Positions 13,553-59,071 are shown, counted from the first letter of the stretch. The stretch is DNA of 64,000 nucleotides from Candidatus Eiseniibacteriota bacterium (GCA_043815815.1 JBDRIO010000003.1:28360-92359), one strand, 5' to 3'. Program-made: numbers and translations. The notes: generated by a model from the letters alone, not told the origin.

Positions 13553-14029
13553 CTAGCGGTATTGCGACTTGATCCTGCCCCAGGATGTCTCTCTGGGGTC
13601 GTCTACGGACGCGGGAGCGCAGGGCAGATACGTCGCAATGAGCACGGGGTCGCTCGTGCCCTCCACGGTCACGGTCCACGGCCCGAGGACAACGCTCTCG
13701 CCGCCCTCGAGGCGTTTCGTGATGGAGACCGAGTACTCGCCGGGGTCCAACCCGCCTATGACGACCGACACGTCGAAACAGCAATCGCAGTCGCACCCGC
13801 CCGACGGACCCAGGTGCTCCCACTCCACGATCTCGATCGAGGTTCCCTCCTGATATGCCTCGAACCCTATCCAGGCGCAGCAGTTGTAGGGCGCCTGATC
13901 GTGGATCACCTCGATCGCCCCCTCCGTGACCTCGAAGAGAACGACCTCCTCGCAAACATCCGCACTGAGCGTCGCCGCGAACAAGAGAACAAGAACAGCC
14001 ACGCCGACAGACGTCTTCATCGCGCGCAC
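13553..14029 (-). CDS. Small secreted Cys-rich protein with the C-terminal WGxIK tag (paralogue 1)
   Basis: 158 aa with a signal peptide (MKTSVGVAVLVLLFAATLSA). Motifs are YNCCAW and GGCDCDCCFD. The tail is ...PRETSWGRIKSQYR*. Confidence 0.8.
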   Translation of the reverse strand: MRAMKTSVGVAVLVLLFAATLSADVCEEVVLFEVTEGAIEVIHDQAPYNCCAWIGFEAYQEGTSIEIVEWEHLGPSGGCDCDCCFDVSVVIGGLDPGEYSVSITKRLEGGESVVLGPWTVTVEGTSDPVLIATYLPCAPASVDDPRETSWGRIKSQYR

Positions 14030-14045
14030 CTCCCTCCGGCGTGTG

Positions 14046-14525
14046 TCAGTGATAGAGCGCCTTCAGAACGCCCCACGTCATCTCAGTACCGCCGTCGTTC
14101 ACGTCCGATTCCACGCAGGCTTCGAACGACGTCGCCAGCGAGGGGTCGGAGTCCCCCTCGACGAGGACGACCTCCTCTGCCGCGAGTTCGAACGTCCAGG
14201 TCCCGTCGAAGTTGTCGAGCGCCTTCCACACCTTCACGGTATACTCCCCAGGCTCCAGGCCGCCCACGAACGCGTCCGCATGGAAGCAGCAGACGCAGTA
14301 GCACGGCCCTTCGTCGAACGTCTCCCACTCCGTGAACTCGATGAGCGACGGAGACTGCTCCACCTCGATCTCGAGCCGGGCGCAGCAGTTGAACATCGCC
14401 TCGTCGTGGATCATCTCGATGGCGCCTGGCGAGGTGGCCAGTGTCACCTCTTCCTCGCAGAGCTGCGCGGAGGAGGGTGAGGATGCAGCGAGGAGGAAGG
14501 CCAAGAGAACGATGGTTCGAGCCAT
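14046..14525 (-). CDS. Small secreted Cys-rich protein with the C-terminal WGxLK tag (paralogue 2)
   Basis: Start trimmed to ATG 14525 (GGGAGGG upstream), giving MARTIVLLAFLLAASSPSSAQ. Motifs are FNCCAR and PCYCVCCFH. The tail is ...GTEMTWGVLKALYH*. Confidence 0.8.
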   Translation of the reverse strand: MARTIVLLAFLLAASSPSSAQLCEEEVTLATSPGAIEMIHDEAMFNCCARLEIEVEQSPSLIEFTEWETFDEGPCYCVCCFHADAFVGGLEPGEYTVKVWKALDNFDGTWTFELAAEEVVLVEGDSDPSLATSFEACVESDVNDGGTEMTWGVLKALYH

Positions 14526-14548
14526 CTGTCCCTCCCGTTCTTTGGCGC

Positions 14549-15280
14549 TCACGCGCCTGCGGCCCCTCCGGACACCTCGGAACCCGCTGCCTCCAGGTCC
14601 TCCGGAGTGCCGACGTCTCTCCAGCCGGCGTCCACCCTGTGCGCGCGCACGACGCGTCCGTCCGCGATCATCATCCTGAACGCGTCCGGAATCTCGTACT
14701 CGCCCCTCTCCGAGCGCTCGAGGTTGGCGGTGTAGTCGAAGAGGACGGGGGTCGATATGAACATCCCCGCGTTGACCCAATTGCTCGGGGCCCGGCCGGC
14801 GGCCGGCTTCTCGACGATCCCCGTGATGCGGTCGCCCTCGGTGCCGACGGCGCCGAACCTGCCCGGGTCGTCCACCTCGCGCACCGCGAGGAGGAGGTCG
14901 GTCGGAACGCTCTCGAAGTCCTGAACCATGGAGGCGTAGACGGAGGGGTCCGTGAGGATGTCGCCGAACGAGAAAAAGAAGGGACCGTCCGAGAGGAATC
15001 GGCTGGCAGGGTCGGCCGCCTTGCCGGTGCCGTCCTGAACCTCCTGGACGAAGTACGAGAGAGAGAGTCCCACCTCCTCACCGCCCCCGAAGTACGAGCG
15101 GATGCTCTCGGCCTTGTACCCCACGATGACGGCGGCGTCGGTGACGCCGGCCGACCTGAGCGCGCGGAGAACGTGCCACAGAATCGGCCTGCCGCCGACC
15201 TCGACCATGGGCTTGGGGATCGAGTCGGTGATCTCCCGCATCCTCGTGCCCTTGCCCGCAGCAAGTACGACCGCCTTCAA
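14549..15280 (-). CDS. Sugar-phosphate nucleotidyltransferase (NTP_transferase family)
   Basis: TTG start at 15280 (GGAGG 8 nt upstream). The N-terminus is LKAVVLAAGKGTRM, containing the GxGTR motif. Confidence 0.8.
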   Translation of the reverse strand: MKAVVLAAGKGTRMREITDSIPKPMVEVGGRPILWHVLRALRSAGVTDAAVIVGYKAESIRSYFGGGEEVGLSLSYFVQEVQDGTGKAADPASRFLSDGPFFFSFGDILTDPSVYASMVQDFESVPTDLLLAVREVDDPGRFGAVGTEGDRITGIVEKPAAGRAPSNWVNAGMFISTPVLFDYTANLERSERGEYEIPDAFRMMIADGRVVRAHRVDAGWRDVGTPEDLEAAGSEVSGGAAGA

Positions 15281-16450: not shown

Positions 16451-17602
16451 CTAGAACTCGTAGCCGACGGTGGCGTAGAGACCGTAGTTGGTGACCTGGC
16501 CGCTCTCGCCGCCCTCCAGGAACGTCTCGCGCACGACCGCCAGCTCGGCCACGTACTGGTCGAACAGGAAGCTGCCGCCCAGTCCCATCGAGTTCTCGGG
16601 CACGATGGCGTTGTCTATGTCTGCGCCGAGCTCGCGGGAGTAGCCGGCGCGGACCAGCGCCTTGCCGTCCGCCAGCGCGACCTCGACCCCCACGGCGACC
16701 GTCCTCAAGGTCTCGCTGAAGGGCTTCCACGCGTCGTCACCGTAGGCAGTTTCGTAGGCCGCGAGCGAGGACTTCGCCTGGTCCCATCCGTCCTGGACGT
16801 AGCTCGCGTGAACCGTGATCGCGTCGGTCGGGCGCACCCTCAAGCCTCCGACCGTAGCCGACTGCGTCACCGACTCCCCGCTGCGCGAGGATTTGTAGTG
16901 TTCGCCGTCGACTCCGATGGTGGAGCTCAGGCGGTGACCCAGGCCGACCGTGACCGCTTCGGTCACATCGAAACTGAAGCCCACCGAGTAGCACGCGGCG
17001 ATCCCGTCGATCCGCGCGGTGTTCAACTCCTCGCCCACCACCCGCTCCCTGGCCTCCTCGCTCAGATTCACGATGCCGACGGTCGCGCCGAGTCCGCCCT
17101 GTCCGTGGTCGCCTATCCTGGCGGCCCCGATAAGCTCGAAGTACCGGAGCGCTCCCGAGAATGTGCCTTCGTAGCCCTTGAGCTCCTCCTCGTGGTAGCG
17201 CTGACCGGTGATCTCGAGGCTACGGTACGAAGGATTCGAGTACCCGAATCCGATGACCGCGGAGCCCGACCGCTTCACGGCCACGAACTGCGTGAAGAGG
17301 AACCCATCGTCGGACGCGTCCAGGCTCTCCTCTCCGTCGGGCAGGTAGTCTCGGGTCTTCACGTTGTACCGGGCGGTCGCCTGCCCGGCGATGTCGGAGA
17401 TCTCGGTGACCGACGCCGGGTTCAGGAAGTACGAGCCGATCCCTCCCGTGGCCGCGTTGGCGCGACAGAGCGCCGCCTCCTGAGCGTTGAGGTAGTGCGA
17501 GTACGTTCGGGGTATGTCCCCCAGCGTCGTCCTCGATTCGTCCGCCGGAACGGCGGTCACGGCCATCGAGACCGCGAGCAGCGTGAGTATGATCGTGCGC
17601 AT
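16451..17602 (-). CDS. Outer-membrane beta-barrel protein, family unknown
   Basis: Signal peptide MRTIILTLLAVSMAVTAVPA, an alternating beta-strand pattern, and the C-terminal ...YATVGYEF aromatic terminus. Confidence 0.7.
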   Translation of the reverse strand: MRTIILTLLAVSMAVTAVPADESRTTLGDIPRTYSHYLNAQEAALCRANAATGGIGSYFLNPASVTEISDIAGQATARYNVKTRDYLPDGEESLDASDDGFLFTQFVAVKRSGSAVIGFGYSNPSYRSLEITGQRYHEEELKGYEGTFSGALRYFELIGAARIGDHGQGGLGATVGIVNLSEEARERVVGEELNTARIDGIAACYSVGFSFDVTEAVTVGLGHRLSSTIGVDGEHYKSSRSGESVTQSATVGGLRVRPTDAITVHASYVQDGWDQAKSSLAAYETAYGDDAWKPFSETLRTVAVGVEVALADGKALVRAGYSRELGADIDNAIVPENSMGLGGSFLFDQYVAELAVVRETFLEGGESGQVTNYGLYATVGYEF

Positions 17603-17865: not shown

Positions 17866-18432
17866 TCACCGATAGAGGGCCTTGATGGAACCCCAGCTCT
17901 TCGCCTCGACGGGGTTGTTCGCGTTCCGGAACTGCACGTAGTCGACCCGGCAGAGGCCTCCCGACACGTGTTCGACGTAGAAGAAGTAGGTGCCGGCGTC
18001 CAGGCAGAATTCGCCGCTCCCGGCGGCGAGCGCGAACGGTCCTCAGCCGAATCCCCAGCCGTCCGTGAACCAGTAGTCTGCGGTCAGCTCCTGGCCCGGT
18101 ACTGGAGCTTCGGCGATGCGGACCCGCGTCTGCACGTGGTCGCCGTATCCGGACTGATACGCGACCGTGCTCGTGTAGCAGCCCGGCGCGGGGAACGTCA
18201 CCTTGAGCCTGAGCCACTCGCCCGGCACGTCGAGTCCTCCCGCAGCGAAAAACCCGCTCGCTCCGGAACAGAATTCCGTGCCGATCGCGACACCGCCCAG
18301 GTCGTTCGACCCGTAGGTCTCGTACTCCTCCCCTTCTATGAAGAGGTCGTCGGCCGCGAGCGCCGCCGGCGAGATCGCCAGCAGCACGAACGCCGCCGCG
18401 AACATCGGGAACATCGCTCGGGAAGTCATCAT
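17866..18432 (-). CDS. Secreted CBM6/35-like (galactose-binding-like) protein with the C-terminal tag; interrupted by one in-frame TGA (18045..18043)
   Basis: ATG 18432 starts MMTSRAMFPMFAAAFVLLAISPAALA (signal peptide). The frame continues ...DYWFTDGWGFG-[TGA]-GPFALAAGSGEFCLDAGTYFFYVEHVSGGLCRVDYVQFRNANNPVEAKSWGSIKALYR*. The same frame runs on both sides of the TGA, and the domain spans it. Confidence 0.6.
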
Positions 18433-18605: not shown

Positions 18606-21194
18606 CTACCTGTACAGCTCCCGGGCGATGCCTATCTCGTAGCTCCGCCCGGGCTGCGGGAAGCCGTCCTCGTCCTCGTAGAGCGCGTCGAAGACGTTGT
18701 CGACACCGACGAAGACGTCTCCCCACGCGGTGGCGAAGGTGGCCCTCGCGTCCACCAGGTAGTACGGGTCCAGCGTGCCGTACCCGTCGTCGTATCTCGA
18801 ACCCACGCGGGTCATGCGTGCGAGATACGTGCCAGGACCCCGCTCGTAGCTCGTTTCCAGCACGGCCATCGTGCGCGGAACGAGCGGGACGAACTCGTTC
18901 GTCTCGATGTCCCTCGCCGAGGTCATGGCCAGGCTCATCCTGACGTCGAGCCCGCGGGCGAGCGAGTGCTCGACCCCGAACTCGGCGCCCCACGAGGAGA
19001 CCGTTCCGATGTTCTCGGCGGGCGCGCCCCAGCCGCCGGCCACGATCATGTCCTCCACCGACTGTTTGAACCCGAGCACCGAGACACGCGAGCCCTCCGC
19101 CGTCCGCTTGGCGAGCTCCACCTCGACCGAAGTGCTCCGCTCGGGCCTGAGATCCGGATTCCCGATCTCGGTGCTGAACCACTCCTTGAGTGTCGGGAAC
19201 CGCGTCTTCATCCCGGCCAGGAGTCGCACGGAAAGCCCGTCACCCATCCTGTGGGTCCACGCCGCCTGCGGGTTGAACCGCAGGAGCGCCCGTCCCTCGC
19301 CGGACATCAAGTCCGTGTTCACGGCGAGAGCGAGCCGGTCGGCGTCGGTGATCGTGATGACGTCCTGCCCGTAGAGGGACGACGTCGTCGCCTCGTAGCG
19401 CCGCCAGTCCTCGCCGACGTCGCCCTGGAGCCGCGCGATGTCACCACGGACGTTCATGCCGCCCGAGAGTCTGTGTCCGTCGATGCCGCGGAACTCCGAG
19501 TACGCGTAGCCGCCGAACGCCCGGTTCGAGACGGTCGACAGCCAGCGCCGGTCGGTCCGCTCGAAGTCGTTGTAGGCGGCGAGCTGGTTGTCGTTCGTGC
19601 CGTAGTAGACCTTGGTCTCCACGAAGAGGGCGTCGCTCGGACGGAACGCGACCGACCCGATCGTCCGGACCTCGCGCCAGAACGGGAAGCGCCAGAAACG
19701 CGGACGGTCCGAGCTCGTCGACGCCGGCGCGTCCCTTCGTCCGTCGCCGACCTGGACCGACACGGAGGCGTCGGTGCGCGGACCCATCTTCCACGCCGCG
19801 CGTCCCCAGACCAGGAGGTCCTCCTTGCCCGAGTGGTCGCGCGTCCCGCCGTCCTCCCAGGCCTCCGCCTCGTAGGAGCCCGGAAGCCCGAACCCGGAGC
19901 GGCCGTTCGCGGCCACTCCGCCCGCCAGATGGACGACCCCTATCCTGCCGCCTCCTGAGACGTACCCCGCGTACCGACCTCCGTCGCCCGCGGAGAGCCT
20001 GTATCCCATGCCGGTGCGGTCGTCGGTGACGGTGGTGACCTCGACGATGCCGCCCAGGGCGTTCGCGCCGTAGACGCTGGCGGCCGGCCCCTTGGTGACG
20101 CGTACCGATCCCAGCGCTCCGGCAAGGACCATCGAGGAGTTGACCGAACCCGTGTACGGATCGGAGATCGGCACGCCGTCGACGAGCACGACGATCTCGC
20201 GCTCGGCCAGGCCCCTGGTCGAGAGCTTGGACTCTCCCCGGGAGTTGGTGCGGACCACGACGCCGGGGACCATCTCGAGAGCCTGTGACAGGTCCTCCGC
20301 CCCCGCGTCTTCGATGTCCGACGAGGACAGCTGGAAGACCGAGTACGGCCCGAACAACCTCGTTCCGTACACGGTGAGTTCCGGAAGCTTGTAGTAAAGG
20401 TCCTGGGAGCCGCCCTCGGAGTGGATACGCGACGGGTCCGTCTGTTGCGCACACGCCGGGGCGACCGCGGTCACGAGGAGGATCCCGGCGATGAGCAGCC
20501 CGAGGGCGGACCCTCCGGGCGGGGTCGACCCGCCTCGCCCCGAGCCGCGTGAACCGGTCTCGGCGCGCCGTGCGCGCGCCCCCGGCGCCAGCAGTATCCT
20601 GTCTACGAACATCACTGCGCTGACCCCCAGAGCTATGTGGACGATGACCAGGAAGATGAAGACGAGCACCGCCTGCGTCGAGCCGGGCGTCTCCTGGTTC
20701 GCAATGAAACCCACGGTGAAGCGGAACACACCCGCCGGCCCGTAGCCTGCGAGATAGCCCTGTACGACGAACGGGTGCGCGAGCGCCCAGAGAACGGCCA
20801 GCGCTCCGGCGACGAGTCTCGAGCGCTGCCTCGGCGGCATGAAGCTCAGGACCAGCTCGACGATCAGGGCCTCGGCGGCGATCCCGAGGGCCGCGAAGGC
20901 CGCTCCCCCAAACCCCGAGACGAACCTTATCCCCGCCGCCGCCAGTCCGACCAGGATGGAGGACCACCGGCGGGGGACGTTCGCGCGCGCGGTCAGCAGT
21001 ATGACCACTCCGAACGTCGAGAGGAACGAGCCGCCGAACGGGACGTGCCAGCTCTTGATCATTCCCCCGACGGTTATCTCGATCACACCCCAGAGGGCCG
21101 CCATCAGCCCGAGGAGCGCTATCTCCCTGCTCGCGAACGGGGCGCGTCCGCCGGTCGTGGGTTCGACCTTCGGCCCGCGCTCCCCGCTCTCCAT
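18606..21194 (-). CDS. Single ORF fusing a roughly 200-aa polytopic membrane domain to a BtuB-sized TonB-dependent receptor
   Basis: The 862-aa ORF has about 5-6 hydrophobic helices in residues 20-200. A Gly/Arg linker follows, then a signal-peptide-like segment LGLLIAGILLVTAVAPACAQQ. TBDR plug motifs follow (ELTVYGTR, DGVPISDP, RVTKGPAASVYGANALGGIVEVTT) and then a barrel. Confidence 0.7.
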   Translation of the reverse strand: MESGERGPKVEPTTGGRAPFASREIALLGLMAALWGVIEITVGGMIKSWHVPFGGSFLSTFGVVILLTARANVPRRWSSILVGLAAAGIRFVSGFGGAAFAALGIAAEALIVELVLSFMPPRQRSRLVAGALAVLWALAHPFVVQGYLAGYGPAGVFRFTVGFIANQETPGSTQAVLVFIFLVIVHIALGVSAVMFVDRILLAPGARARRAETGSRGSGRGGSTPPGGSALGLLIAGILLVTAVAPACAQQTDPSRIHSEGGSQDLYYKLPELTVYGTRLFGPYSVFQLSSSDIEDAGAEDLSQALEMVPGVVVRTNSRGESKLSTRGLAEREIVVLVDGVPISDPYTGSVNSSMVLAGALGSVRVTKGPAASVYGANALGGIVEVTTVTDDRTGMGYRLSAGDGGRYAGYVSGGGRIGVVHLAGGVAANGRSGFGLPGSYEAEAWEDGGTRDHSGKEDLLVWGRAAWKMGPRTDASVSVQVGDGRRDAPASTSSDRPRFWRFPFWREVRTIGSVAFRPSDALFVETKVYYGTNDNQLAAYNDFERTDRRWLSTVSNRAFGGYAYSEFRGIDGHRLSGGMNVRGDIARLQGDVGEDWRRYEATTSSLYGQDVITITDADRLALAVNTDLMSGEGRALLRFNPQAAWTHRMGDGLSVRLLAGMKTRFPTLKEWFSTEIGNPDLRPERSTSVEVELAKRTAEGSRVSVLGFKQSVEDMIVAGGWGAPAENIGTVSSWGAEFGVEHSLARGLDVRMSLAMTSARDIETNEFVPLVPRTMAVLETSYERGPGTYLARMTRVGSRYDDGYGTLDPYYLVDARATFATAWGDVFVGVDNVFDALYEDEDGFPQPGRSYEIGIARELYR

Positions 21195-21320: not shown

Positions 21321-24026
21321 TCAGCGCCGGCCGCGCATGATCTCCGCCGCGGCGGCCGTGTCGCCCGCCGCCAGCTCCAGCTCGCTCCAGGCGGCCAGGA
21401 ACTGCTCGCCCTGTCCGCCCAGCTCGCGCGCGCGCTGGAAGAACCGCCTCGCCTCCGTGTGGAACCCCAATCCGCCGAGTACGGTCGCCTTGAGACCCAG
21501 CGGCTGCCAGGCCGTGGGGAGCAGGCGCACGACATCGTCCAGATATTCGAGCGCCTCTTCGGGCTGGCCGTTTCTGGCCAGCATGACTGCCAGGTCATAC
21601 TTGAGCCGCGGATTGTGCGGCTGCAGCTCCACGGAGCGCCGCATCGCCGCCACCGCCGCGTCGAGGTCGTCCATCTCCCAGTAGCAGCGGGAGAGGCTCG
21701 TGAACACGCCGGCCGAGGACGGGCCCGACTCCTCGGCGCGCCTGAAGGCGGCGACCGCCTCGGTGTATCGTTCCTGCCTCAGGAGGAAGTCGCCGTAGGC
21801 GAGGCGCGCCGCCGGGTCGTCCGCGGCGTTCCTCTCGGCCCATCTGAGGAGCGTCTCGGCGCGCTCCACGCCGCCCTCACGCTCCAGGAGTGCCGCAAGT
21901 TCCATCTTGTAGCGCACGCTCCCCGGGTCGAGACGCACCGCCCGCTCGAGCGCCCCGATCGCCGCCTCGACGTCGCCCGCCGCCAGGTCGAGCCTGGACA
22001 GGTTGTGGTACGTGTCCGCTCTGCCGGGCGCCAGCGAGATGGCGGCAGCAAGCTCCTCGCGCGCCGCCTTGAGCCTGCCGGCCTCGCGATACGCGACACC
22101 GAGATTGTTGTGTATGTGAGCGGCGCCCGGCGCGGCATCGCGGGCCGCCTCGAGAACGCGAATGCCGCGCCCGACCTGACCGCGGACGAGAAGGAGCTGG
22201 CCGAAGTCGGCGAGCGTCGTCGCGTACGCCTCCAGGGTGCCGTCGTCCGGCCGCGGACCGTGCGCGTCTCCGGAGTGGGCGAACTCGCTCACGTAGCCCT
22301 CGAGCGCTTCGTTGTCGAGCGCTGTCGAGCTCGCGGCGTCGGTCGACGCGCCGGAGATCCGGACGAGCAGTCCGGGCGCGGACAGACGTCTCGGGAACGC
22401 GTCTCTGCCGATGTCGATGTCCGCCACGATGGGCCGAACGTCGCCGTTCAGCTCGACCAGGAGCGGCAGATAACCGGACACCGGCATCGACGCGCGGGCC
22501 GGCGGCACGCACGGGACGGAAGGGTCGCGTCCCTCGAGCGTCGCGAGTTCTCCCTCCGTCGGGAACTCGACGCCCGGGTACCACTTCTCCAGATGCGGCG
22601 CCCGCTCGCGTATGTTGATGACCGCGATGTCGTCGCGGGTCCCGTCGACGAACCGCGAGTACCAGAGCGGGAACACGGTGCGGTCGTTCTGCGCGAGGAC
22701 GACGGCGTTGGGAGGCACCTCCGAGAGCATCCTCTCGAGATAGACGCGCCCGCCGGTGGCGTCGCTGAGATCGCGCTCCGGCCAGAGAACCGCCGTGTGA
22801 AGAAAGACCGAGACGCCCGCAACGGCCGCAAGTCCGAAGGCGGCGGCCAGACGGGAGCGCGAGCCGGCCCGCGAGACGAGACGCGGCAGTTCCGCGACCG
22901 CCAGACCCGCGCATGCGGCCAGGACGGCGTAGACGGGGATGTAGTAGTTGCCGATGTCCGGGATGCGGTAGTTGACCGCGTGGACGACCACGAGGATCGC
23001 CTCGAGTGCGAGAACGGCGAAGAGCCTCTTCGAGCGGATCCAGAGCGTGGCGACACCGACGCCCGCGAGCGAGAGAACCGGCCACGTGAGTGCGGAGGGC
23101 AGACCCGAGAAGAACGACCTGAGATTCGCGAGCACGCCCGGAAGCGGTTCGGCGAAGAGCCGGGACGTGTACTGCGAACCGGAGACGTGCCCTACGAAAG
23201 AAGGCAGCGAGTCCAGCCTCGTCCAGAGAACGGCGGGGTCCTGCGCCGACCGGAGGGGCAGATAGGCGTAGAGCGAGAGCCCCGCCAGAACGAAGAGGAG
23301 CATCCTCCACACGCTCCGGGACGGGGCGTGCCGGCCCTTCCCTGCCGCGAGAGCGACCGCTACCGACGGAACGGCCAGCGCCGCGGTCAGATGATGCGCG
23401 AGAGACAATCCCAGCAGGAGTCCGCCGACCCAGAGCAGCCGCTCTCCGCGAAGTCCCGCGGACACGAGGCCCTCCTCCGCCATCCTGCGCCACCGCACGA
23501 AGACGAGCAGGGCGCCGAACACCAGAAGGGCAGAGAGCGTGTAGACCTCCGGAACGGTCGCCTGTGACCAGAGCGCCGGCGAGAACGAGAACGCAAGCCC
23601 CGCAACGACCGCCCCCAGCACCCTGGGCACGAGGGACCTGCGCTCGCCGCCCGGGCCTCCCTCACGTTCGTGGCCCGAAGCCCCTCCGAGCCCGATTCCC
23701 CGCCCGGCCGTCAGCTCCCACACGAGGAGCGACAGGACGCCGGACGCAACGGCCGCGAAGAGCGCCGAGAGGAGCGAGAGTCTGAAGAACGGAGTCCCGG
23801 CGGGGACGCGAACGGCCAGCGCCGAGAGGAGCGTGTAGAGCGGATAGCCGGGCGGATGAGCGACGCCGAGGGTCCGCGCCACTGCCACGAACTCGGCCGA
23901 GTCTCCAAGCGTGAGGTCGCGGGCGGCGGTCAGGCAGTAGACGGCGAACGACGTGACGGACACGAGCGCCGCCGAGCAGAGCGGCGCCGCCCCGAGCTCG
24001 CCGATGTCTCCGGCCGGGTCTCTCAT
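21321..24026 (-). CDS. DUF2723 (TMEM260-like glycosyltransferase-fold) membrane protein with C-terminal TPR repeats
   Basis: 901 aa. The N-terminal GDSAEFVAVARTLGVAHPPGYPLYTLL motif is followed by many TM helices. The C-terminal roughly 350 aa are TPR-like repeats. Confidence 0.75.
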   Translation of the reverse strand: MRDPAGDIGELGAAPLCSAALVSVTSFAVYCLTAARDLTLGDSAEFVAVARTLGVAHPPGYPLYTLLSALAVRVPAGTPFFRLSLLSALFAAVASGVLSLLVWELTAGRGIGLGGASGHEREGGPGGERRSLVPRVLGAVVAGLAFSFSPALWSQATVPEVYTLSALLVFGALLVFVRWRRMAEEGLVSAGLRGERLLWVGGLLLGLSLAHHLTAALAVPSVAVALAAGKGRHAPSRSVWRMLLFVLAGLSLYAYLPLRSAQDPAVLWTRLDSLPSFVGHVSGSQYTSRLFAEPLPGVLANLRSFFSGLPSALTWPVLSLAGVGVATLWIRSKRLFAVLALEAILVVVHAVNYRIPDIGNYYIPVYAVLAACAGLAVAELPRLVSRAGSRSRLAAAFGLAAVAGVSVFLHTAVLWPERDLSDATGGRVYLERMLSEVPPNAVVLAQNDRTVFPLWYSRFVDGTRDDIAVINIRERAPHLEKWYPGVEFPTEGELATLEGRDPSVPCVPPARASMPVSGYLPLLVELNGDVRPIVADIDIGRDAFPRRLSAPGLLVRISGASTDAASSTALDNEALEGYVSEFAHSGDAHGPRPDDGTLEAYATTLADFGQLLLVRGQVGRGIRVLEAARDAAPGAAHIHNNLGVAYREAGRLKAAREELAAAISLAPGRADTYHNLSRLDLAAGDVEAAIGALERAVRLDPGSVRYKMELAALLEREGGVERAETLLRWAERNAADDPAARLAYGDFLLRQERYTEAVAAFRRAEESGPSSAGVFTSLSRCYWEMDDLDAAVAAMRRSVELQPHNPRLKYDLAVMLARNGQPEEALEYLDDVVRLLPTAWQPLGLKATVLGGLGFHTEARRFFQRARELGGQGEQFLAAWSELELAAGDTAAAAEIMRGRR

Positions 24027-27170: not shown

Positions 27171-27199
27171 TTGACTACTGAGAGAAACTGCGGTATAAT
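27171..27199 (+). promoter_or_regulatory. Sigma70-type promoter of the C25 peptidase gene
   Basis: TTGACT (27171..27176), a 17-nt spacer, then TATAAT (27194..27199). Confidence 0.65.
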
Positions 27200-27281
27200 G
27201 AAGGGGACGGCTGAGTTGCGCCGTTCGCTGCGTCCACGCTGTCCAGCGCTTCCCGTACCTCACATCGAGGAGGACGATACC

Positions 27282-39504: not shown

Positions 39505-39516
39505 ACCCTACCTCCG

Positions 39517-40872: not shown

Positions 40873-40884
40873 ACGCTGCCTCCT

Positions 40885-42356: not shown

Positions 42357-42461
42357 CCGACGCGCCCGCAGGGCCCGGAGGGCGGCGCCAATCGACGGCG
42401 CGCAGGGGCCCCGCGCGGGGGCACCCCGACCCGCTCGGCCCGCCCTCTCCGGCCGGGCGAG

Positions 42462-42491
42462 TTGACACCGCATCGCTCCAGGGGATAGCAT
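42462..42491 (+). promoter_or_regulatory. Sigma70-type promoter of the Kelch/ABC operon (divergent from the previous promoter)
   Basis: TTGACA (42462..42467), a 17/18-nt spacer, then ATAGCAT (42485..42491). Confidence 0.5.
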
Positions 42492-42569
42492 GACGCATCT
42501 CAGGCACAATGGAAGACCGCGTTCAGGGACACATCTCGTTCCAGAGTCTCGCTCCAGAGGAGGAGAAAC

Positions 42570-44777: not shown

Positions 44778-44800
44778 GACGGTTCGACGACGGGAGCCGG

Positions 44801-47949: not shown

Positions 47950-47959
47950 CAAGCGCACC

Positions 47960-50808: not shown

Positions 50809-50994
50809 GCCCTCTCCTGTAGCGCCGACAACTCGTTTCCTCTTGATGGGGCCGAGAGTCGCGTACGGCGGAACGGGACCTCTACCGGGCCGGCCTCGTG
50901 CTGTCTGTTCTCCCGGGCTCCTCTGCCAGCGCGAGTCTAGCATCAAACTCCACCCCTCCGAAACGCGTTGTTCCCGAGGTTCGGGGCCTCCCCA

Positions 50995-51023
50995 TTGACC
51001 CGGAGGGCCTGTCGCGATATCAT
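50995..51023 (+). promoter_or_regulatory. Sigma70-type promoter
   Basis: TTGACC (50995..51000), a 17-nt spacer, then TATCAT (51018..51023). Confidence 0.55.
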
Positions 51024-51070
51024 GTCTTGCACACGAGATTGGCTCCCTGCGCACACGGAGCTGGGACAGC

Positions 51071-52117
51071 ATGCGAACTCAATCAAAGAGCGCCTGGTCC
51101 ACCGTCGCGCCCGCCGCGGGCGCGGGGTTCGTCGTGCTCGTCCTTGCGACACAACTCCTCGCCAGCACGGTCTTCGTGTCATCGGACGGCCTGGGAGACT
51201 ACCCCGACATCCAGGCCGCGATCGACGCCGTGCCCGACAGCAGCACGGTCTATCTGCTGCAGGGCACGTACACGGGCTACGGCAACCGCGGCGTCGTGCT
51301 CAGCGGGAAGAACGTGTCCCTTCTCGTCTTCGGGCCGCCGGGCTCCGCGGTCATCGACTGCCAGGGCGGCGACAGAGCCCTCGAGGTCGGCGCGGGCGTC
51401 GACTCCACGTCGGTCATAGACGGTATCACGTTCCGGAACGGAAACGCGCGGAGCGGGAGCGGTGGCGCCGTCTACTGTGAGAGCGGGGGACCGAAGATCC
51501 TGAACTGCTCGTTCGCCGACAACTCCGCCACGTACGGCGGGGCCCTGCGGTCGAACGGCGAGCCGGCGCCCATCGTCAGAGGGTGCGTCTTCACCGGCAA
51601 CAGCGGGGTCTACGGAGGCGCGATCGACGCGAGGGAGGTCGCGATCCGGGTGGAGAACTCGACCTTCACCGGCAACTCCGCAAGCCGCGGAGGAGCCATG
51701 AACTTCTTCGACTCCTCCCCCACGATCTCGAACTGCACGATGTGCATGAACTCCGCGGACTTCGGAGCGGCCGTGAAGCTGGACCAGAGCTCTGCGCTGA
51801 TCGTGCGATGCATCGTGGCGCTCAACCGAACGAACGAGGCACTGTACGGTGAGGAGAGCTCAGAGACGAGTTACTCGTGCGTGTTCGGGAACGCGGACGG
51901 CGACGAGGTCGACGGCAACGCCCACCACAACTCTACGGTCGATCCTCTCCTCTGTGACGCCGAGGGTGGTGACTATCACCTGTGCTCGAACTCCTATTGC
52001 CTGCCCTCAGGTAACCCGTGGAGCGTCCACATAGGACACCAGGCCCAGGGTTGCGCGAGCTGTATGTCCCCCGTGAGTGAGATGTCCTGGGGCGCTCTCA
52101 AGGCCCGCTACCGCTGA
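51071..52117 (+). CDS. Secreted right-handed parallel beta-helix repeat protein with the C-terminal tag
   Basis: 348 aa with an N-terminal signal/anchor segment. It has repeated GGA(V/L/I/M)-type turns (SGGAVYC, YGGALRS, YGGAIDA, RGGAMNF). The tail is ...GCASCMSPVSEMSWGALKARYR*. Confidence 0.75.
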   Translation: MRTQSKSAWSTVAPAAGAGFVVLVLATQLLASTVFVSSDGLGDYPDIQAAIDAVPDSSTVYLLQGTYTGYGNRGVVLSGKNVSLLVFGPPGSAVIDCQGGDRALEVGAGVDSTSVIDGITFRNGNARSGSGGAVYCESGGPKILNCSFADNSATYGGALRSNGEPAPIVRGCVFTGNSGVYGGAIDAREVAIRVENSTFTGNSASRGGAMNFFDSSPTISNCTMCMNSADFGAAVKLDQSSALIVRCIVALNRTNEALYGEESSETSYSCVFGNADGDEVDGNAHHNSTVDPLLCDAEGGDYHLCSNSYCLPSGNPWSVHIGHQAQGCASCMSPVSEMSWGALKARYR

Positions 52118-52265: not shown

Positions 52266-52436
52266 CAGCCCCGCGTCGTCAGCGCCCCCGCGTCTCCGCG
52301 AGCGCTCAGCCTGGTTCCTCCGTCTGAGCTGGCTTGATTCTCGCTACCCTCTCTCTCACCGCAAGCTCGCATGGAACGAGCACTTCATGCGCGACGCGCA
52401 TAAGCTGTGACACGTCGTCCTGTACGCAGAAGACGC

Positions 52437-52465
52437 TTGACAACTTTCATGCTCGCGCCTATACT
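52437..52465 (+). promoter_or_regulatory. Sigma70-type promoter
   Basis: TTGACA (52437..52442), a 17-nt spacer, then TATACT (52460..52465). Confidence 0.65.
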
Positions 52466-52492
52466 CCGCGCAACTTGAGCCCGGGAGTGCCC

Positions 52493-55048
52493 ATGCTCTG
52501 CGCAATTGCGCGCGTGGTCTATGGACAGTTGTATCCAACGCCCGCGAACCTCACGCGGCACGTCGTTCTGTGCCTCGCGGTCGTCGCGCTCGCTGCCTCC
52601 CCCGCTCTCGCCGACAACCCTCCGGATTCGGACTCGACCGGCCACGTGCTCATCGGCATGACGCCCGGGCAGGGGTTCGAGGTCTCCTGCGAGGACTCCG
52701 TCCTGTTCCTGGACCCCGTCGTCGCCAGTGACCTCGGGATCCTCGAGTTCCACATAGAGGGTCGGCACGGCCCCTTCCCCAACACCGTGTGCATTCGGAT
52801 CCCGGCGCCGCCGCAGATCATGTCGGTGCACGCCTCCGCGCTCGCCGACGTATCCGCCACCATAAGCTGGCTCACGGACCGCCCGGCCACTTCGCGCGTG
52901 GAGTACGGCCTCACGGGTTCGTACGGCATGGCGACGCCCGAGGACCCGACGCTCGTCGTCTCCCACGACGTCCCGCTCACGTATCTCGAGCCGGAACTCA
53001 CTTATCACTACCGTGTCGTCTCGACGGACGCCTTCGGGAATCAGACCTTCGGCGGCGACCGGACGTTCACGACGCTCCCGCCGCACCCAACGCTCTCCGG
53101 GGTCTCGGTGAGCGGCGTCACGGAGACGTCGTTCGATGTGACCTGGGCCACGAGCAGCCCGTGCGACTCGTACGTCGAGTACGGACCGACGGACTCCTAC
53201 GGAGCCATCACGCCGACGTCCCAGGAGTTCCAGACCGACCATGTGGCGACGGTGAGCGGCCTCATTCCCGGCGCAACGTATCACTTCCGGGCCTGCGGGA
53301 CCGACGATCTGGGCAGAGCGGTCTGCTCGCCGGACTTCAGCGCGACGACCCTCGCCGGGGCTCTTGTGGTATTCAACCTCTCGGTGACCGACACGACAGC
53401 GACGAGCGCGATGATCGAGTGGCAGACCACCCGACCAGCGTCGTCCTGGGTGCTGTACGGTCAATCCGACGTCTCCGAGAACCAGACGGGCAACAACGAC
53501 CTCGTCACGGATCACCAGATCACCATCGACGGACTGGAGCCCAACACGCTCTACATCTTCCGGGTGCTGTCGATGAGCGCATCCGGATCGTACGACGAGT
53601 CGGACGTGCATCAGTTCGAGACGCCCTGCTACCCGCTCGAGATAGGCGGACCTCTCATCGCCGGCAGGACACACACCACGGTGACGGTCTCCTGGACGAC
53701 CAGCAGGCCGGCGGACGGCCGCATCGAGTACGGGGAGGACGAGAGCTACGGACAGGTCGCGGATGGCGATCCGGATCTGTCACTCGGGCACGAGGTGACC
53801 ATAGAGGGTCTCTCGGCCGGCATGCGGTACCACGTTCGCGCGGTCAGCACCGACGCCAACGCGTGCACGGCCCGTTCTCCGGACGTCGTAGTGTCTACCG
53901 AGCCGTACGCCCTCTCGCTCTTCTCCGTGTCCGTGCCGGAGACGACGGCCACCTCGGCGACGATCTCATGGCAGACGAACAACGCGTCCGCCTGCCGCGT
54001 GGAGTACGGGCCCACGGCCAACTACGGTTTCTTCAGTGAGGAGAACCCCTTCCCGCTGACCGAGCACACCGTCGTTCTGGGCGACCTGGCCCCGAGAACG
54101 CTCTACTACTTCCGGATACACGCGACAGACACACACGGACAGAACGCAATCTCGGCGCGCCTCCAGTTCTCGACGCCGAACCAGGACGGCCCTGGAGGGC
54201 TTCTCATACACGGGGTCGTCGCCAACCAGATCGGCCCCACCTTCGCCGCCATCTGCTGGCAGACCAACGCCGACGCCACGTCGACGGTGCACTACGGGAC
54301 GACGCCGGAGCTGGGCCTCACTGCTTGGGACCAGGAGATGACGTCCGACCACTGTCTGGTTCTGACGGGGCTCGCTCCGGGCACGCGCTACTACTACCGC
54401 GTGAGTTCAGAGGACGGCGGTCAGTTCACGGCCGAGTCGCAGATGTACAGTTTCCTCACGCCCTCGCACGACAATGTGGCGCCGGGTGCCCCGGACGGGC
54501 TGACGGCGTCTCAGTGCCACGAGGGCGTTCGGCTCTTGTGGAACGCAGGACCGGAGTTCGATCTCGACGGGTACCGCGTGTATCGCCGCGTGGAGGACGA
54601 CACGCACTTCGACAGGGTCGCGGAGCTCTCGCAGTACGAGACGTCCTGGGTCGACGACGGCGTCGTCGAGCGCTGGACGTACGAGTACGCGGTGACCGCG
54701 CTCGACCTCGAAGGCAACGAGAGCGGACTCTCGCCCATCGTCGCGGTGACCGCGGGCACGAGCGCGTCGGGACGGCTCTGGGTCTATCCGAACCCCGTGA
54801 CGCAGAAGACGACCACGATCAGCTTCGCGGCGCCGTACGATTGCGACGGTTCGTTCACCGTGTCGATCTACGACGCGCGGGGCAGGCTCGTGAAGACGGT
54901 AGCGAAGGGCCGTGCCGGCAGGGACGTCTCGTCGGTCCTGTGGAACACTCGTGACAACACGGACAACCCTGTGTCCAGCGGCATCTACTTCTGCGTCGTC
55001 TCGTTCTCCTCCCAGTCGGTTCGCTCCAAGATCATGGTCGTTCGCTGA
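52493..55048 (+). CDS. Secreted protein with six tandem FN3/purple-acid-phosphatase-N-like modules, one more FN3 domain and a T9SS C-terminal domain
   Basis: Start trimmed to ATG 52493, downstream of the promoter. The repeated module is (A/V)TISW.T..PA.S.VEYG.T..YG...........H.V.L..L.P.T.Y(H/Y)(Y/F)R, six times. The CTD is ...YPNPVTQKTTTISFAAP...SGIYFCVVSFSSQSVRSKIMVVR*. Confidence 0.8.
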   Translation: MLCAIARVVYGQLYPTPANLTRHVVLCLAVVALAASPALADNPPDSDSTGHVLIGMTPGQGFEVSCEDSVLFLDPVVASDLGILEFHIEGRHGPFPNTVCIRIPAPPQIMSVHASALADVSATISWLTDRPATSRVEYGLTGSYGMATPEDPTLVVSHDVPLTYLEPELTYHYRVVSTDAFGNQTFGGDRTFTTLPPHPTLSGVSVSGVTETSFDVTWATSSPCDSYVEYGPTDSYGAITPTSQEFQTDHVATVSGLIPGATYHFRACGTDDLGRAVCSPDFSATTLAGALVVFNLSVTDTTATSAMIEWQTTRPASSWVLYGQSDVSENQTGNNDLVTDHQITIDGLEPNTLYIFRVLSMSASGSYDESDVHQFETPCYPLEIGGPLIAGRTHTTVTVSWTTSRPADGRIEYGEDESYGQVADGDPDLSLGHEVTIEGLSAGMRYHVRAVSTDANACTARSPDVVVSTEPYALSLFSVSVPETTATSATISWQTNNASACRVEYGPTANYGFFSEENPFPLTEHTVVLGDLAPRTLYYFRIHATDTHGQNAISARLQFSTPNQDGPGGLLIHGVVANQIGPTFAAICWQTNADATSTVHYGTTPELGLTAWDQEMTSDHCLVLTGLAPGTRYYYRVSSEDGGQFTAESQMYSFLTPSHDNVAPGAPDGLTASQCHEGVRLLWNAGPEFDLDGYRVYRRVEDDTHFDRVAELSQYETSWVDDGVVERWTYEYAVTALDLEGNESGLSPIVAVTAGTSASGRLWVYPNPVTQKTTTISFAAPYDCDGSFTVSIYDARGRLVKTVAKGRAGRDVSSVLWNTRDNTDNPVSSGIYFCVVSFSSQSVRSKIMVVR

Positions 55049-56234: not shown

Positions 56235-57527
56235 ATGGTGCGCATGGCGATTCTCTCAGGAGTGCTGACCCTCGCGGCCGCCACGGCATCCGCGGCGACC
56301 ATCCTCGTGGACCTGGAAGGACACGGGGACCACTTGACCATACAGGAGGGCCTCAATGCGGCCGTGTCCGGGGACACGGTCGTCGTTGCGCCCGGCGTCT
56401 ACTCGGGCCCGCTGAATCGCGACATCGACTTCGGCGGACGCAGGGTGAAGCTCGTCTCGTCCGACGGAAGCGAGTCGACGATCATCGACTGCCAGTCCGC
56501 CGGAAGGGCGTTCGCCTTCTCGAACGGCGAGACGCGTGACGCCGTGGTCCGGGACCTGACGGTCAGGAACGGGTACGCCGTCGAGGGAGGGGCGGTCCGG
56601 CTCTACGAGGCGTCGCCCGCGTTCATCGGTTGCGTGTTCGAGGACAATGTCGGCGAGTTCGGGGGCGCGTTCTACGTAGGCCGCAGTTCCGAGACCAGCA
56701 TCGAGTGGTGCGAGTTCACGGACAACACCGCGGAGAAGTACGGCGGGGCGATCTACGCTCACGGGAGCCGACCCTACGTGTACGAGTGCGGCTTCACGGG
56801 GAACAGCTCCGCGATCAGCGGGGGCGCGATCTCGTGCAAGAGCTGGACGGTGAGCAGCATCTACAACTGCCGTTTTACCGGCAACTCGTCTCTCGACGGC
56901 GGCGCCGTATATGTCGCAACGCTGTACGGATGGGACCAGTGGGAGTGGGATACGACGCGCGTCGGGTTCTGCTGGTTCGCCGAGAACACCGCGGACCGAG
57001 GAGGAGCCTTGCTCGTTCGGGCCTTCTCGCAGGTCGACGTGGTCTGGAGCTCGTTCGTGCGCAACTCGGCCGAGCAGGGCGGCGCAGCATACTGCGAGAC
57101 CGACGCCGAGGGTTCGGTCCGGTTCCAGAGCTGCTCGATGCTCTACAACAACGCCGAGTACGGCGGGGGGCTCTGCTCGTCGGGCTTCTCGTACTACAAC
57201 GAGGTCGTGCTGGAGCAGTGTCTGATCGCCTTCAGCACGGAGGGCAGTTCCCTTCTGAGGCGCGACTACTCGCGCGTCACGGCGGACCTGTGTCTGGCGT
57301 ACGGAAACGCTGGTGGAGACGCCCTCTACGGCACGCGCAACCAGTTCACGGATCCGCTCCTCTGCGATGTGTACTCAGACGACTTCAACCTCTGCGAGAA
57401 CTCGCCGTGTCGAGGCGCCAACAACGAGTGGGGATTCCTCGTGGGGTCGTACAGACTCGTCTGCGGAGAGTGCGGATCGCAGGTGCGCGAGGCGTCGTGG
57501 GGGTCCATCAAGGCCCTGTATCGCTGA
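56235..57527 (+). CDS. Secreted parallel beta-helix repeat protein with the C-terminal tag (paralogue of 57770..59071)
   Basis: Start trimmed to ATG 56235 (GGAGG upstream), giving the signal peptide MVRMAILSGVLTLAAATASA. It has repeats of the form F.(G/D)N.(A/S)...GGA(I/V)Y. The tail is ...VCGECGSQVREASWGSIKALYR*. Confidence 0.8.
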   Translation: MVRMAILSGVLTLAAATASAATILVDLEGHGDHLTIQEGLNAAVSGDTVVVAPGVYSGPLNRDIDFGGRRVKLVSSDGSESTIIDCQSAGRAFAFSNGETRDAVVRDLTVRNGYAVEGGAVRLYEASPAFIGCVFEDNVGEFGGAFYVGRSSETSIEWCEFTDNTAEKYGGAIYAHGSRPYVYECGFTGNSSAISGGAISCKSWTVSSIYNCRFTGNSSLDGGAVYVATLYGWDQWEWDTTRVGFCWFAENTADRGGALLVRAFSQVDVVWSSFVRNSAEQGGAAYCETDAEGSVRFQSCSMLYNNAEYGGGLCSSGFSYYNEVVLEQCLIAFSTEGSSLLRRDYSRVTADLCLAYGNAGGDALYGTRNQFTDPLLCDVYSDDFNLCENSPCRGANNEWGFLVGSYRLVCGECGSQVREASWGSIKALYR

Positions 57528-57687
57528 GTCGCTCGCCCGTGGTCCCGCTCGCCGGGTGTCGGAGAGGCGCCGCCCCGCCCGCCTCTAAACGCGCCCCTCC
57601 CGGCCGTGTCGAACTGGCTGGGGGCAAACCTGAGGCGGGCGTCGGCGAAGGGGCCGCCACGCCCCCGGCCTCAAGATCGGAATGATG

Positions 57688-57716
57688 TTGTGCCGCGGGA
57701 GTCCCGGGACTAGACT
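57688..57716 (+). promoter_or_regulatory. Sigma70-type promoter (weaker -35)
   Basis: TTGTGC (57688..57693), a 17-nt spacer, then TAGACT (57711..57716). Confidence 0.45.
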
Positions 57717-57769
57717 GAGGGTACCGAGCGTCACCTGCCCCCCAGAGAATCCCCCCGTGGAGGACCAGC

Positions 57770-59071
57770 ATGATAGTACGTCTGACTATCGCCGTCGGCG
57801 TCCTTGCCATCGCGTTCGCGACGGCGCAGGCCGCGACCATCCACGTGGACGTGGGCGGAGGGGGAGACTTCCTGACGATCCAGGAGGGCGTGGACGCGGC
57901 GGCATCGGGTGATACCGTGCTCGTGGCGCCGGGAACCTACACCGGCGCGCTCAATCGCGACATCAACTTCGACGGCCGGCTGCTGAAGCTGATCGCGGAC
58001 GGCGGCAGAGACGCGACGGTCATCGACTGCCAGTCAGCCGGCAGGGCGTTCGTCTTTTCGAGCGGCGGGACGCCCGACGTCCGTGTGGAGGGGTTCACGG
58101 TCAGGAACGGGGCGGTCGGCGCCGGCAACGGGGGCGCGGTCTCGATGGCCGGTGGCTCGGCCACGTTCTTCGAGTGCGCCTTCGAGAACAACTCTGCCAC
58201 GTGGGGCGGCGTGTTCTACTTGGGACACGAGGCCTGGCCGTACATAGAGTACTGCACGTTCGAGGGCAACACCGCCGTGGACTACGGTGGCTGCATATAC
58301 ACGTACGCCTCGCAGCCGTACGTCTATGAGTGCGATTTCACGAACAACACCGCGGGCATCAGCGGCGGCGCCATATCGTGCAAGACGTGGACGGTGGCGA
58401 GCATCTACAACAGCCGATTCATCGGCAACAGCGCGCAGGACGGAGGCGCAATCTACATCGGCACGCTGTTCTCCCTGGACGACGACGTGGCCCCCTCGTA
58501 CATCGGGTTCAGCTGGTTCGAGGACAACACCGCCGACCGTGGAGGAGCGATATTCCTCAACAGCTTCTCGTGGGTGACCTCGATGTGGAACACGCTCGTC
58601 CGCAACACCGCCCAGCAGGGCGGGGCCGTCTTCTGCCAGACCGACGCGCAGGGGTCCCTCAAGCTGCAGAACTGCACGCTCGCCTACAACCACGGCGAGT
58701 ACGGGGGCGGCATATGCTCCGCGGGGAACTCCGCCTACAACCACCTGACCGTCGAGCAGTGCGTGATCGCCTTCAGCACGTCGGGCAACTCGCTGCACAG
58801 GCTGGACTACTCCCCCGTGAACGCCGACCTGAGCCTCGCCTTCGGGAATGAGGGGGGCGACGTCCTCTACGGCGGAGTGCGGAACCTCTTCGTCGATCCG
58901 CTCTTCTGCGACGTCTATTCGGACGACTTCAACCTGTGCGAGAACTCGCCGTGCAGGAGCGTGAACAACGAGTGGGGATTCCTGATGGGCTCGTTCCGGC
59001 AGGTCTGCGGAGAGTGCACGACGCCGGTGCAGGAGACATCGTGGGGTTCGATCAAGGCGATGTACCGCTGA
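57770..59071 (+). CDS. Secreted parallel beta-helix repeat protein with the C-terminal tag
   Basis: 433 aa with the signal peptide MIVRLTIAVGVLAIAFATAQA. It is collinear with 56235..57527 (for example DPLFCDVYSDDFNLCENSPCR in both). The tail is ...VCGECTTPVQETSWGSIKAMYR*. Confidence 0.8.
   Translation: MIVRLTIAVGVLAIAFATAQAATIHVDVGGGGDFLTIQEGVDAAASGDTVLVAPGTYTGALNRDINFDGRLLKLIADGGRDATVIDCQSAGRAFVFSSGGTPDVRVEGFTVRNGAVGAGNGGAVSMAGGSATFFECAFENNSATWGGVFYLGHEAWPYIEYCTFEGNTAVDYGGCIYTYASQPYVYECDFTNNTAGISGGAISCKTWTVASIYNSRFIGNSAQDGGAIYIGTLFSLDDDVAPSYIGFSWFEDNTADRGGAIFLNSFSWVTSMWNTLVRNTAQQGGAVFCQTDAQGSLKLQNCTLAYNHGEYGGGICSAGNSAYNHLTVEQCVIAFSTSGNSLHRLDYSPVNADLSLAFGNEGGDVLYGGVRNLFVDPLFCDVYSDDFNLCENSPCRSVNNEWGFLMGSFRQVCGECTTPVQETSWGSIKAMYR

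Follow-up and report, generated by a model that had tools for sequence, protein, structure and literature searches.

A short peptide tag at the C-terminus of many dissimilar exported proteins in uncultured bacteria: a candidate sorting or docking signal of the cell envelope

To our knowledge, the well-described C-terminal sorting signals of bacteria consist of a motif joined to a membrane helix, of a folded domain or of a barrel strand. In secretins of the PulD-PulS type, the S-domain, a C-terminal peptide that is disordered by itself, turns into an amphipathic helix on a pilotin lipoprotein, which then decides outer-membrane targeting. Braun's lipoprotein ends in ...YRK, and its C-terminal Lys is linked by an L,D-transpeptidase. 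Very short C-terminal targeting motifs are known from eukaryotes, namely KDEL and the -SKL of the peroxisomal targeting signal PTS1, the latter bound by the TPR domain of PEX5, and TPR domains can read C-terminal peptides. The C-terminal domain (CTD) of the type 9 secretion system (T9SS) folds as a beta-sandwich of 40-100 aa and contains motifs B, D (GxY) and E. T9SS signals may be 40-55 aa in Prevotella intermedia, and the final 22 aa of Hbp35 were reported to be the sole part strictly needed for GFP to be secreted and attached (PMC11969387). Here we describe a much shorter peptide, hereafter the tag, which ends nine exported proteins encoded in a stretch of 64,000 nucleotides from a Candidatus Eiseniibacteriota bacterium (GCA_043815815.1, JBDRIO010000003.1:28360-92359; the whole stretch is hereafter the window, with a G+C content of 67%), and we compare it with these systems.

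A loose pattern, W-x-x-[ILVM]-K-[AS]-x-[YF], was scanned in the six-frame translation of the whole window and gave nine matches, none of them internal and each followed within one or two residues by a stop codon; the chance expectation per shuffled window was a mean of 0.01 (200 mononucleotide shuffles) or 0.0 (100 dinucleotide shuffles). The nine tails that an earlier note on this DNA had listed are thus found where it placed them, each abutting a stop codon (9/9), and nine of the roughly 45 genes of the window are tagged. The copies are written with different codons, including TCC, TCG and AGC for Ser, ACG and ACC for Thr, GGC, GGG and GGT for Gly, ATC and ATA for Ile, CTG and CTC for Leu, and CGC, CGG and AGG for Arg, with synonymous variation at nearly every position; the tag is therefore conserved as a peptide and not as DNA, as the same note had proposed. 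That the tails should be a DNA repeat, a terminator-linked element, an assembly artefact or the product of chance has a practically negligible probability and was rejected, given the varied synonymous codons, the nearly empty shuffles and a distribution over at least about 70 species of metagenome-assembled genomes (MAGs) and 189 protein clusters.

This distribution was obtained in two ways. A degenerate DNA pattern, consisting of the back-translated core plus a stop codon, was scanned in one genome per species (185,579 species) and yielded at least 118 stretches, the tag loci (L-numbers below); counts based on these loci refer to the matches listed, among which 116 of 118 are real tags at the ends of open reading frames (ORFs). 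Where a label exists, it is mostly Eisenbacteria, and they are also labelled as Latescibacterota, Krumholzibacteriota, Coatesbacteria and Effluviviaceae MAGs; a few carry the labels Gemmatimonadota, Fibrobacteraceae or Saccharimonadaceae, which, given their G+C content of 67-71%, we suspect to be mislabelled bins. The two matches labelled Isosphaeraceae and proteobacterium were rejected as tags, being TGG (non-stop) matches within an unrelated protein. The second search, unbiased by the DNA pattern, used a HMMER profile built from the nine window tails only, and found 189 proteins (clusters at 50% identity) at E ≤ 0.001 among 1.84 billion representative proteins.

The resulting consensus is (C)-x-[TS]-P-V-E-x-[STA]-[ST]-W-G-x-I-K-A-[LM]-Y-R-COOH, with 15-18 residues conserved. 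The core of the tag stands as it was first stated, and the conserved region proves longer upstream, reaching -16: outside the positions that the DNA pattern selected, -10 is S or T in 139 of 152 tails, E at -13, V at -14, P at -15 and T, V or S at -16 are also conserved, and Cys is over-represented at -18 to -20. Of the 152 tails, 147 end in Arg, a count that is not independent since the DNA pattern required Arg there; the nine tails of the window, on whose choice the pattern had no influence, end in R in seven cases and otherwise in H or Q, never in K, and the invariant Lys sits at -5.

The bodies that carry this peptide are highly diverse. The 121 tagged ORFs of the listed loci and the window form 17 BLAST clusters and 27 singletons, and the tag is found on at least 40 unrelated protein families, with NHL propellers, Cleaved_Adhesin domains, InhA-like MAM domains, CBM-like domains, PMP beta-helices and amidotransferase/ThuA-like folds among them; because so many dissimilar bodies carry it, the tag is modular. 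Within the window itself, the nine bodies had been described as unrelated to one another, which sequence comparison corrects to six families: the proteins ending at 13553 and 14046 are paralogues, as are those ending at 52117, 57527 and 59071.

The position of the tag and the nature of its carriers agree with the prediction made from the window. Of the 38 matches in the loci that were not seeded by the DNA pattern, 34 lie within three residues of a stop codon and the other four within eight residues or at a contig end, and no deep-internal match was present in the 1.6 million residues of the six-frame translation of the fetched loci; likewise, among the best 150 of the 189 profile matches, 133 proteins end within three residues of the motif. 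By a crude hydrophobicity test, a signal-like N-terminal segment is present in 102 of 108 tagged proteins (about 94%), compared with 84% of proteins with a T9SS CTD and 46% of other ORFs. The tagged proteins are small, with a median length of 285 aa versus 761 aa for T9SS CTD proteins.

Two families of orthologues show how strongly the peptide is held. The tag ends 111 of 121 homologues in the beta-helix family and 88 of 90 in the family of the gene that starts at 25222, and in both (85-91 sequences) W and K never vary and the conservation of P-V and I is at least 93%, which places them among the best-conserved alignment columns, with freely varying residues in between. AlphaFold2 models of one member of each family, two unrelated folds, predict the tag as a short helix of low confidence (predicted local distance difference test score, pLDDT, 51-65) that is not docked on its own body: in the 25222 protein, the body has pLDDT > 90, the linker 274-279 < 50 and the tail helix about 51-55, and in the protein that starts at 57770, the body has pLDDT > 95 and the last 20 aa fall from 82 to 60, with a short helix at W425-Y432. 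These predictions on two unrelated bodies, together with the diversity of the bodies, led us to reject the tag as an element of the body fold. A strongly selected peptide that is not packed on its own protein argues that the motif is read by something else.

With somewhat more confidence than doubt, we interpret the tails as a modular short linear motif that an envelope receptor would read in trans so as to sort or dock proteins at the surface; the earlier note, too, had suggested a dedicated recognition system. The motif would have been added to a wide range of unrelated proteins, mostly small and of a single domain, that use the Sec pathway for export in Candidatus Eisenbacteria and neighbouring T9SS-bearing candidate phyla, and after export it would hang off the folded body by a flexible linker. 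A conserved receptor of the cell envelope would then recognize the tag in trans, on which the tag could fold as a two-turn amphipathic helix or an edge strand, and binding would sort or retain the cargo or dock it on the outer membrane or the surface of the cell, providing a second route parallel to that of the T9SS CTD. We infer the existence of this receptor, its place and the outcome of binding, and the foremost candidate partners would be components linked to the T9SS, either a shuttle like PorV or the C25/PorU-like peptidases that are often encoded nearby. A further-reaching proposal, which we hold tentatively and consider doubtful, is that the tag serves as the address in a system for envelope sorting or surface display that has not been described before, is present in Eisenbacteria, Latescibacterota and Krumholzibacteriota and is independent of the T9SS and of sortase-like and exosortase-like machineries; its receptor would recognize a linear peptide of 15 residues on periplasmic proteins in their folded state.

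The predicted helix might instead act by itself. If helical, the tag would expose a face of W, I, L and Y together with K and R, with a hydrophobic moment of about 0.4-0.5, and such a short amphipathic aromatic-basic helix (a short helix is what AlphaFold2 predicts) could stick directly to the outer membrane or its lipopolysaccharide with no protein receptor. We regard this direct anchoring as improbable: a stable in-plane anchor would take more than eight or nine residues, the conserved upstream P-V-E-x-S/T-S/T would be left unexplained, and W-G, K and Y-R are near-invariant across phyla, which points to a specific binding pocket and not to generic amphipathicity.

Several observations weigh against a sorting signal read by a receptor, beginning with the carriers. 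Among signal-bearing proteins, lipobox-like sequences occur in 11 of 102 tagged proteins, 0 of 37 T9SS CTD proteins and 19 of 164 other ORFs; six or seven of the tagged carriers have convincing lipoboxes, all of them in an NTF2-like family (P0124, P0128, P0156, P0136, P0166, P0185, P0232 and P0261; loci L044, L054 and L077), and lipoprotein carriers are odd for a pure outer-membrane export signal. The members of this family, often lipoproteins, have the tag at the C-terminus and keep a second well-conserved copy directly after the signal peptide or between tandem domains. In addition, about 10% of the profile matches (best 150 of 189) bear 4-11 extra residues after the R, so that, with these extensions and the internal NTF2-like copies, a free C-terminus is not strictly needed.

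The genes around the tag weigh in the same direction, as no receptor or enzyme was found among the candidate genes of the window or the recurrent neighbours in the 118 tag loci listed. A FadL-like barrel (16454-17602), not recognizable as PorV, and five arylsulfotransferase-like paralogues are without homologues in these loci, and the DUF5916 barrel (in L090) and OmpA (in L084 and L074) match only in closely syntenic loci. A protein with a TMEM260-like part (GT-C type, protein O-mannosyltransferase-like) and a long TPR domain (21321-24026, minus strand), whose ATG overlaps the TGA of a tagged gene (ATGA), matches them by its TPR part only; its TMEM260-like part adjoins the 25222 orthologue in two close relatives (L119 and L122), and the gene was not met again in other tag loci. 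Finally, all of the organisms are uncultured and are known here from their sequences and from predicted structures.

The internal and N-terminal copies and the lipoprotein carriers are explained no less readily by a peptide for docking or binding than by a signal for export alone. On such an account, which we consider possible and yet rather unlikely, the tag would resemble a miniature dockerin, tethering small accessory modules (binding domains, adhesins and beta-helices) non-covalently to a scaffold or to large surface enzymes with no role in transport. The traits of a short linear motif (a disordered linker, low pLDDT, invariant W and K), the small size of the carriers, the NTF2-like copies, the tolerated extensions after R and the Cleaved_Adhesin and MAM modules among the carriers all suit it; the gingipains, whose cleaved adhesin domains stay assembled with them, would provide an analogy for the tethering of tagged modules. 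No receptor domain was found for it either in the genes searched, and it does not explain how soluble tagged proteins cross the outer membrane. Its probability overlaps with those given for the other readings, because a docking peptide may itself belong to a separate system.

The large enzymes to which such modules could be tethered would be Peptidase_C25 proteins with a T9SS CTD, which the tagged genes repeatedly adjoin. These are the most frequent non-tag neighbours, present in 21 of the 118 loci listed and in several gene orders (such proteins are encoded in the window and in L007, L008, L012, L014, L027, L036, L038, L059, L074, L078, L083, L093, L097, L118, L121 and L122). The C25 protein of the window (27171-31319, plus strand, ending KAVLLR) was rejected as a PorU orthologue, with 65 bits against a cut-off of 420, and the best PorU-like C25 candidate reached 267 bits over model positions 4-770, again below that cut-off. 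The gene for the C25 protein of the window follows the 25222 gene, an order that is kept in three of four orthologous regions. The C25/PorU-like neighbours are suggestive as candidate partners, although their association may reflect the clustering of genes for secreted proteins and shared synteny, which accounts for part of the adjacency and weakens it as evidence for docking as for sorting. Among the other recurrent neighbours, housekeeping genes were found that synteny has carried along (YceG, radical SAM proteins, epimerases, GlcE/GlcF and a multihaem cytochrome), and an Rce1-like CPBP protease occurs in three loci, all of one shared synteny.

The T9SS offers the most detailed comparison, since its signal is present beside the tag. 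Three proteins of the window had been said to carry a T9SS domain, and matches to FlgD_ig, Por_Secre_tail and TIGR04183 confirm this for the C25 protein, for a second type A CTD protein (32485-33267, minus strand, ending VVKVR) and for a protein of Fn3/purple-acid-phosphatase-N repeats with a type A CTD (52334-55048, plus strand, ending KIMVVR). The two signals coexist in the same loci, as the note had remarked, and are mutually exclusive on each protein: among the CTD proteins of the tag loci, listed with a home-built profile of local T9SS CTDs, 0 of 55 carry the tag. In the beta-helix family some members have the tag and others a T9SS CTD, so the two are swapped on homologous bodies. Both are modular C-terminal signals on Sec-exported proteins of bacteria of the Fibrobacteres-Chlorobi-Bacteroidetes (FCB) type, found in the same genomes and neighbourhoods on similar cargo, and in both a hydrophobic run is followed by a basic residue at the end.

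The tag could accordingly be a minimal T9SS signal, an extremely reduced CTD read by a PorV/SprA-like shuttle or translocon and maybe removed by a PorU-like C25 sortase, which would make the tagged proteins ordinary T9SS cargo. Its restriction, among the matches listed, to lineages that also encode type A CTD proteins speaks for this, as do its exclusion by and exchange with the CTD, its cargo typical of the T9SS (Cleaved_Adhesin, MAM, beta-helix), the frequent C25/PorU-like neighbours and a shared ending of basic residue, hydrophobic run and basic residue at the C-terminus; T9SS signals can shrink, and the shortened published examples may leave room for such a link. We nonetheless judge it possible and yet rather unlikely. 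Neither Por_Secre_tail (PF18962/TIGR04183) nor FlgD_ig (PF13860) matched the tagged proteins (whole proteins, E ≤ 1; isolated tails, E ≤ 10), and hhalign found no similarity between the tag tails and the local CTD tails (probability 0.15%), on which ground a remnant of the T9SS domain was rejected. Motifs B and D are absent, and the likeness to motif E alone is loose, since the CTDs end in ...RK[MVLI]VLL[RK] and the tag in IKALYR, with a register from K to the terminus that is off by one residue. The 15-18 aa of the tag are predicted to be helical or disordered and not a beta-sheet, the shortest functional T9SS domain known is much longer than 15 aa, and the tag is seen on lipoproteins and occasionally at internal or N-terminal sites, neither of which is seen for T9SS-domain proteins.

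A further candidate is a mark for processing, degradation or cell-wall attachment. The C-terminal place of the tag, the Y-R that it shares with the tail of Lpp and an invariant Lys that could be a nucleophile would be in line with a degron for a periplasmic tail-specific protease or with attachment to peptidoglycan in the manner of Lpp. Both are very improbable: a degron under purifying selection on a fifth of the genes in 64 kb is implausible, and no L,D-transpeptidase or Prc-like gene was associated with the tag in the window or among the neighbours in the tag loci. Attachment of the Braun-lipoprotein type was rejected, because the Lys of the tag is at -5 and the terminal residue is never K in the nine window tails.

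The nine tagged genes of the window are as follows. The first (13553-14020, minus strand) encodes a small Cys-rich exported protein of 155 aa that ends ...DPRETSWGRIKSQYR, with the tag at 13556-13600, and has no Pfam or NCBIfam match; the second (14046-14525, minus strand; 159 aa, ending ...GTEMTWGVLKALYH) is its paralogue, with 40% identity (E = 6e-35), and has an orthologue in L119 that ends ETSWGVIKGLYR. The third (17866-18432, minus strand), which encodes a CBM-like beta-sandwich with a signal peptide and ends ...PVEAKSWGSIKALYR, contains a conserved in-frame TGA and is treated below. The fourth (24023-24976, minus strand) encodes an exported protein of about 317 aa, possibly a lipoprotein, that ends ...EVEPATWGTIKATFRR, and it is its TGA that the TMEM260-like gene overlaps. 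The fifth (25222-26091, plus strand; ABIG03_00800), of 289 aa and ending ...TPVEETSWGHIKALYR, has a glutamine-amidotransferase/ThuA-like fold according to a fold search. The sixth (31539-32345, minus strand; 268 aa, ending ...TVEEETWTAIKALYQ) is the most divergent copy in the window, with T for G and Q for R, and its orthologues end EETWGAIKALFR in L119 and STSWGTIKAEYR in L121. The last three, on the plus strand, encode paralogous PMP-repeat beta-helices: the seventh (51071-52117; 348 aa; right-handed) ends ...SPVSEMSWGALKARYR, the eighth (56235-57527; 430 aa; ABIG03_00915) ends ...SQVREASWGSIKALYR and the ninth (57770-59071; 433 aa; ABIG03_00920) ends ...TPVQETSWGSIKAMYR. The fifth and ninth proteins are identical to ABIG03_00800 and ABIG03_00920 of a Candidatus Eisenbacteria MAG, both labelled 'hypothetical protein' in the NCBI annotation.

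The remaining neighbours can be described briefly. The DUF5916/CBM9 outer-membrane barrel lies in two overlapping frames on the minus strand (59079-59603 and 59392-61821), both of which match one intact homologue in L090, and the split is probably due to a frameshift or a sequencing error. The five paralogous arylsulfotransferase-like (Arylsulfotran_2) beta-propellers are encoded within 13 kb (38155-42507, 46564-48030 and 49408-51072, minus strand); they have N-terminal hydrophobic segments and share an ...IATLFE..RL....W... ending, and related copies are present in L119. No link between these paralogues and the tag was found. A TonB-dependent receptor (18606-21194, minus strand) and its orthologues (L119, 4336-6966; L121, 7121-9745; L122, 3521-6166) end in ...R[ED]L[YF][RHQ], an ending that lacks the usual terminal aromatic residue and is faintly reminiscent of the ...ALYR of the tag.

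The third tagged gene deserves separate consideration. For the copy at 17866 on the minus strand, the tail and its position were given correctly in the earlier note, with the correction that the frame holds an in-frame TGA (18043-18045), which leaves 58 codons from stop to stop. Read through this TGA, a single frame of 188 codons encodes the signal peptide, the CBM-like body and the tag, interrupted in the motif GWGFG-TGA-GPF. The TGA occupies the same alignment column in five homologues of 28-49% identity (L122, ~2802-3380, minus; L121, 6409-6960 and 5771-6346, both minus; L085, 2623-3075, minus; L113, 1424-1981, plus), in which the homology continues through it to the tag, and its context follows the consensus G-[WFLA]-G-[FIL]-G-TGA-[GS]. 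Because the TGA is conserved in five homologues, this is probably one gene of 188 codons. About 20 nt downstream of the TGA, a hairpin with a G-rich loop of 5 nt is predicted, 5 of whose 10 pairs keep pairing via two-sided changes in at least one of four sequences; on this comparative evidence, it would be in keeping with a selenocysteine insertion element of the bacterial kind. Neither an Rfam scan nor a tRNA scan of the surroundings of this TGA gave a match.

The gene and its homologues are therefore candidate exported selenoproteins, in which the TGA is probably decoded as selenocysteine, a reading suggested by the aligned coding sequences; if it is true, the conserved in-frame UGA in tagged CBM-like proteins means that these bacteria have exported selenoproteins. 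A second in-frame TGA was observed in L081, in the context 'ETCDPNP-TGA-TPLFVCC' of an ORF that ends ...NDATWGRIKALYR. It stands at the position of the Cys of a C[DE]PNPC motif that this protein repeats and that P0263 and P0266 also contain, a correspondence of the selenocysteine/Cys type.

Models other than those of the T9SS do not match the tag either. No model of Pfam (2025) or NCBIfam (June 2026) matched the tail, whether in whole proteins or in isolated tails of 20-42 residues (the latter at E ≤ 10), in line with the earlier view that no known C-terminal model fits; the NCBIfam sorting-domain models likewise gave no match, and nothing significant was found among PDB sequences. The tag was accordingly rejected as a known domain model. 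Searches of the literature by sequence strings, by topic and in full text found no description of it. A beta-signal of outer-membrane proteins, as read by the beta-barrel assembly machinery, was also rejected, since the bodies are soluble folds (beta-helix, alpha/beta) and the tag ends in Arg. Because none of the defining features of known signal families for which a comparison was possible was found in the tag, we rate this kind of signal as new, and its mechanism is what we infer.

Should the tag be a sorting or docking signal, it would mark a large unannotated part of the secretome of several uncultured phyla and provide a simple rule for predicting surface and extracellular proteins. If, moreover, the further-reaching proposal of a separate system were true, the tag would be the first signal of the PTS1/KDEL type among those that target bacterial proteins to the outer membrane or the surface. 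A soluble linear tag of 15 residues on dozens of unrelated folds would represent a different recognition principle and points to a receptor, and its small size would suit it for use as a portable tag, for display or for affinity, once its partner is known.

Among known systems, the tripartite signals (LPXTG/sortase, PEP-CTERM/exosortase and GlyGly-CTERM/rhombosortase) are alike in placing a short signature near the C-terminus of many unrelated exported proteins of a single genome, and some of the tagged bodies recall their cargo: a tagged NHL body resembles the PEP-CTERM protein ScyF, and a tagged beta-helix resembles the GlyGly-CTERM protein RbtA. They differ in requiring a transmembrane helix and a basic cluster, whereas the tag has only nine residues after the W and no hydrophobic segment. 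The earlier distinction of the tag from these signals is upheld by the lack of any hydrophobic stretch of at least 15 residues, and the class is excluded because neither a hydrophobic helix nor a basic cluster follows the signature. Classical PEP-CTERM proteins are encoded in the orthologous regions of related Eisenbacteria (L119, 13855-14520, minus; L121, 17511-18167 and 18437-19090, both minus), with the tail …PEPSTLLLLGSGLLGLG…RRRR, so at least three C-terminal signals, namely the T9SS domain, PEP-CTERM and the tag, coexist in these bacteria. The secretin S-domain with its pilotin is similar as a disordered C-terminal peptide that becomes an amphipathic helix, which for the tag is a prediction, and different in belonging to one protein family instead of dozens of unrelated cargos and in having no sequence similarity to the tag. 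PTS1 and KDEL, in turn, are very short conserved C-terminal peptides, transferable between unrelated proteins and read by one receptor, as the tag would be by its putative receptor; they serve another domain of life and another compartment, and the tag is longer than they are and tolerates extensions and internal copies.

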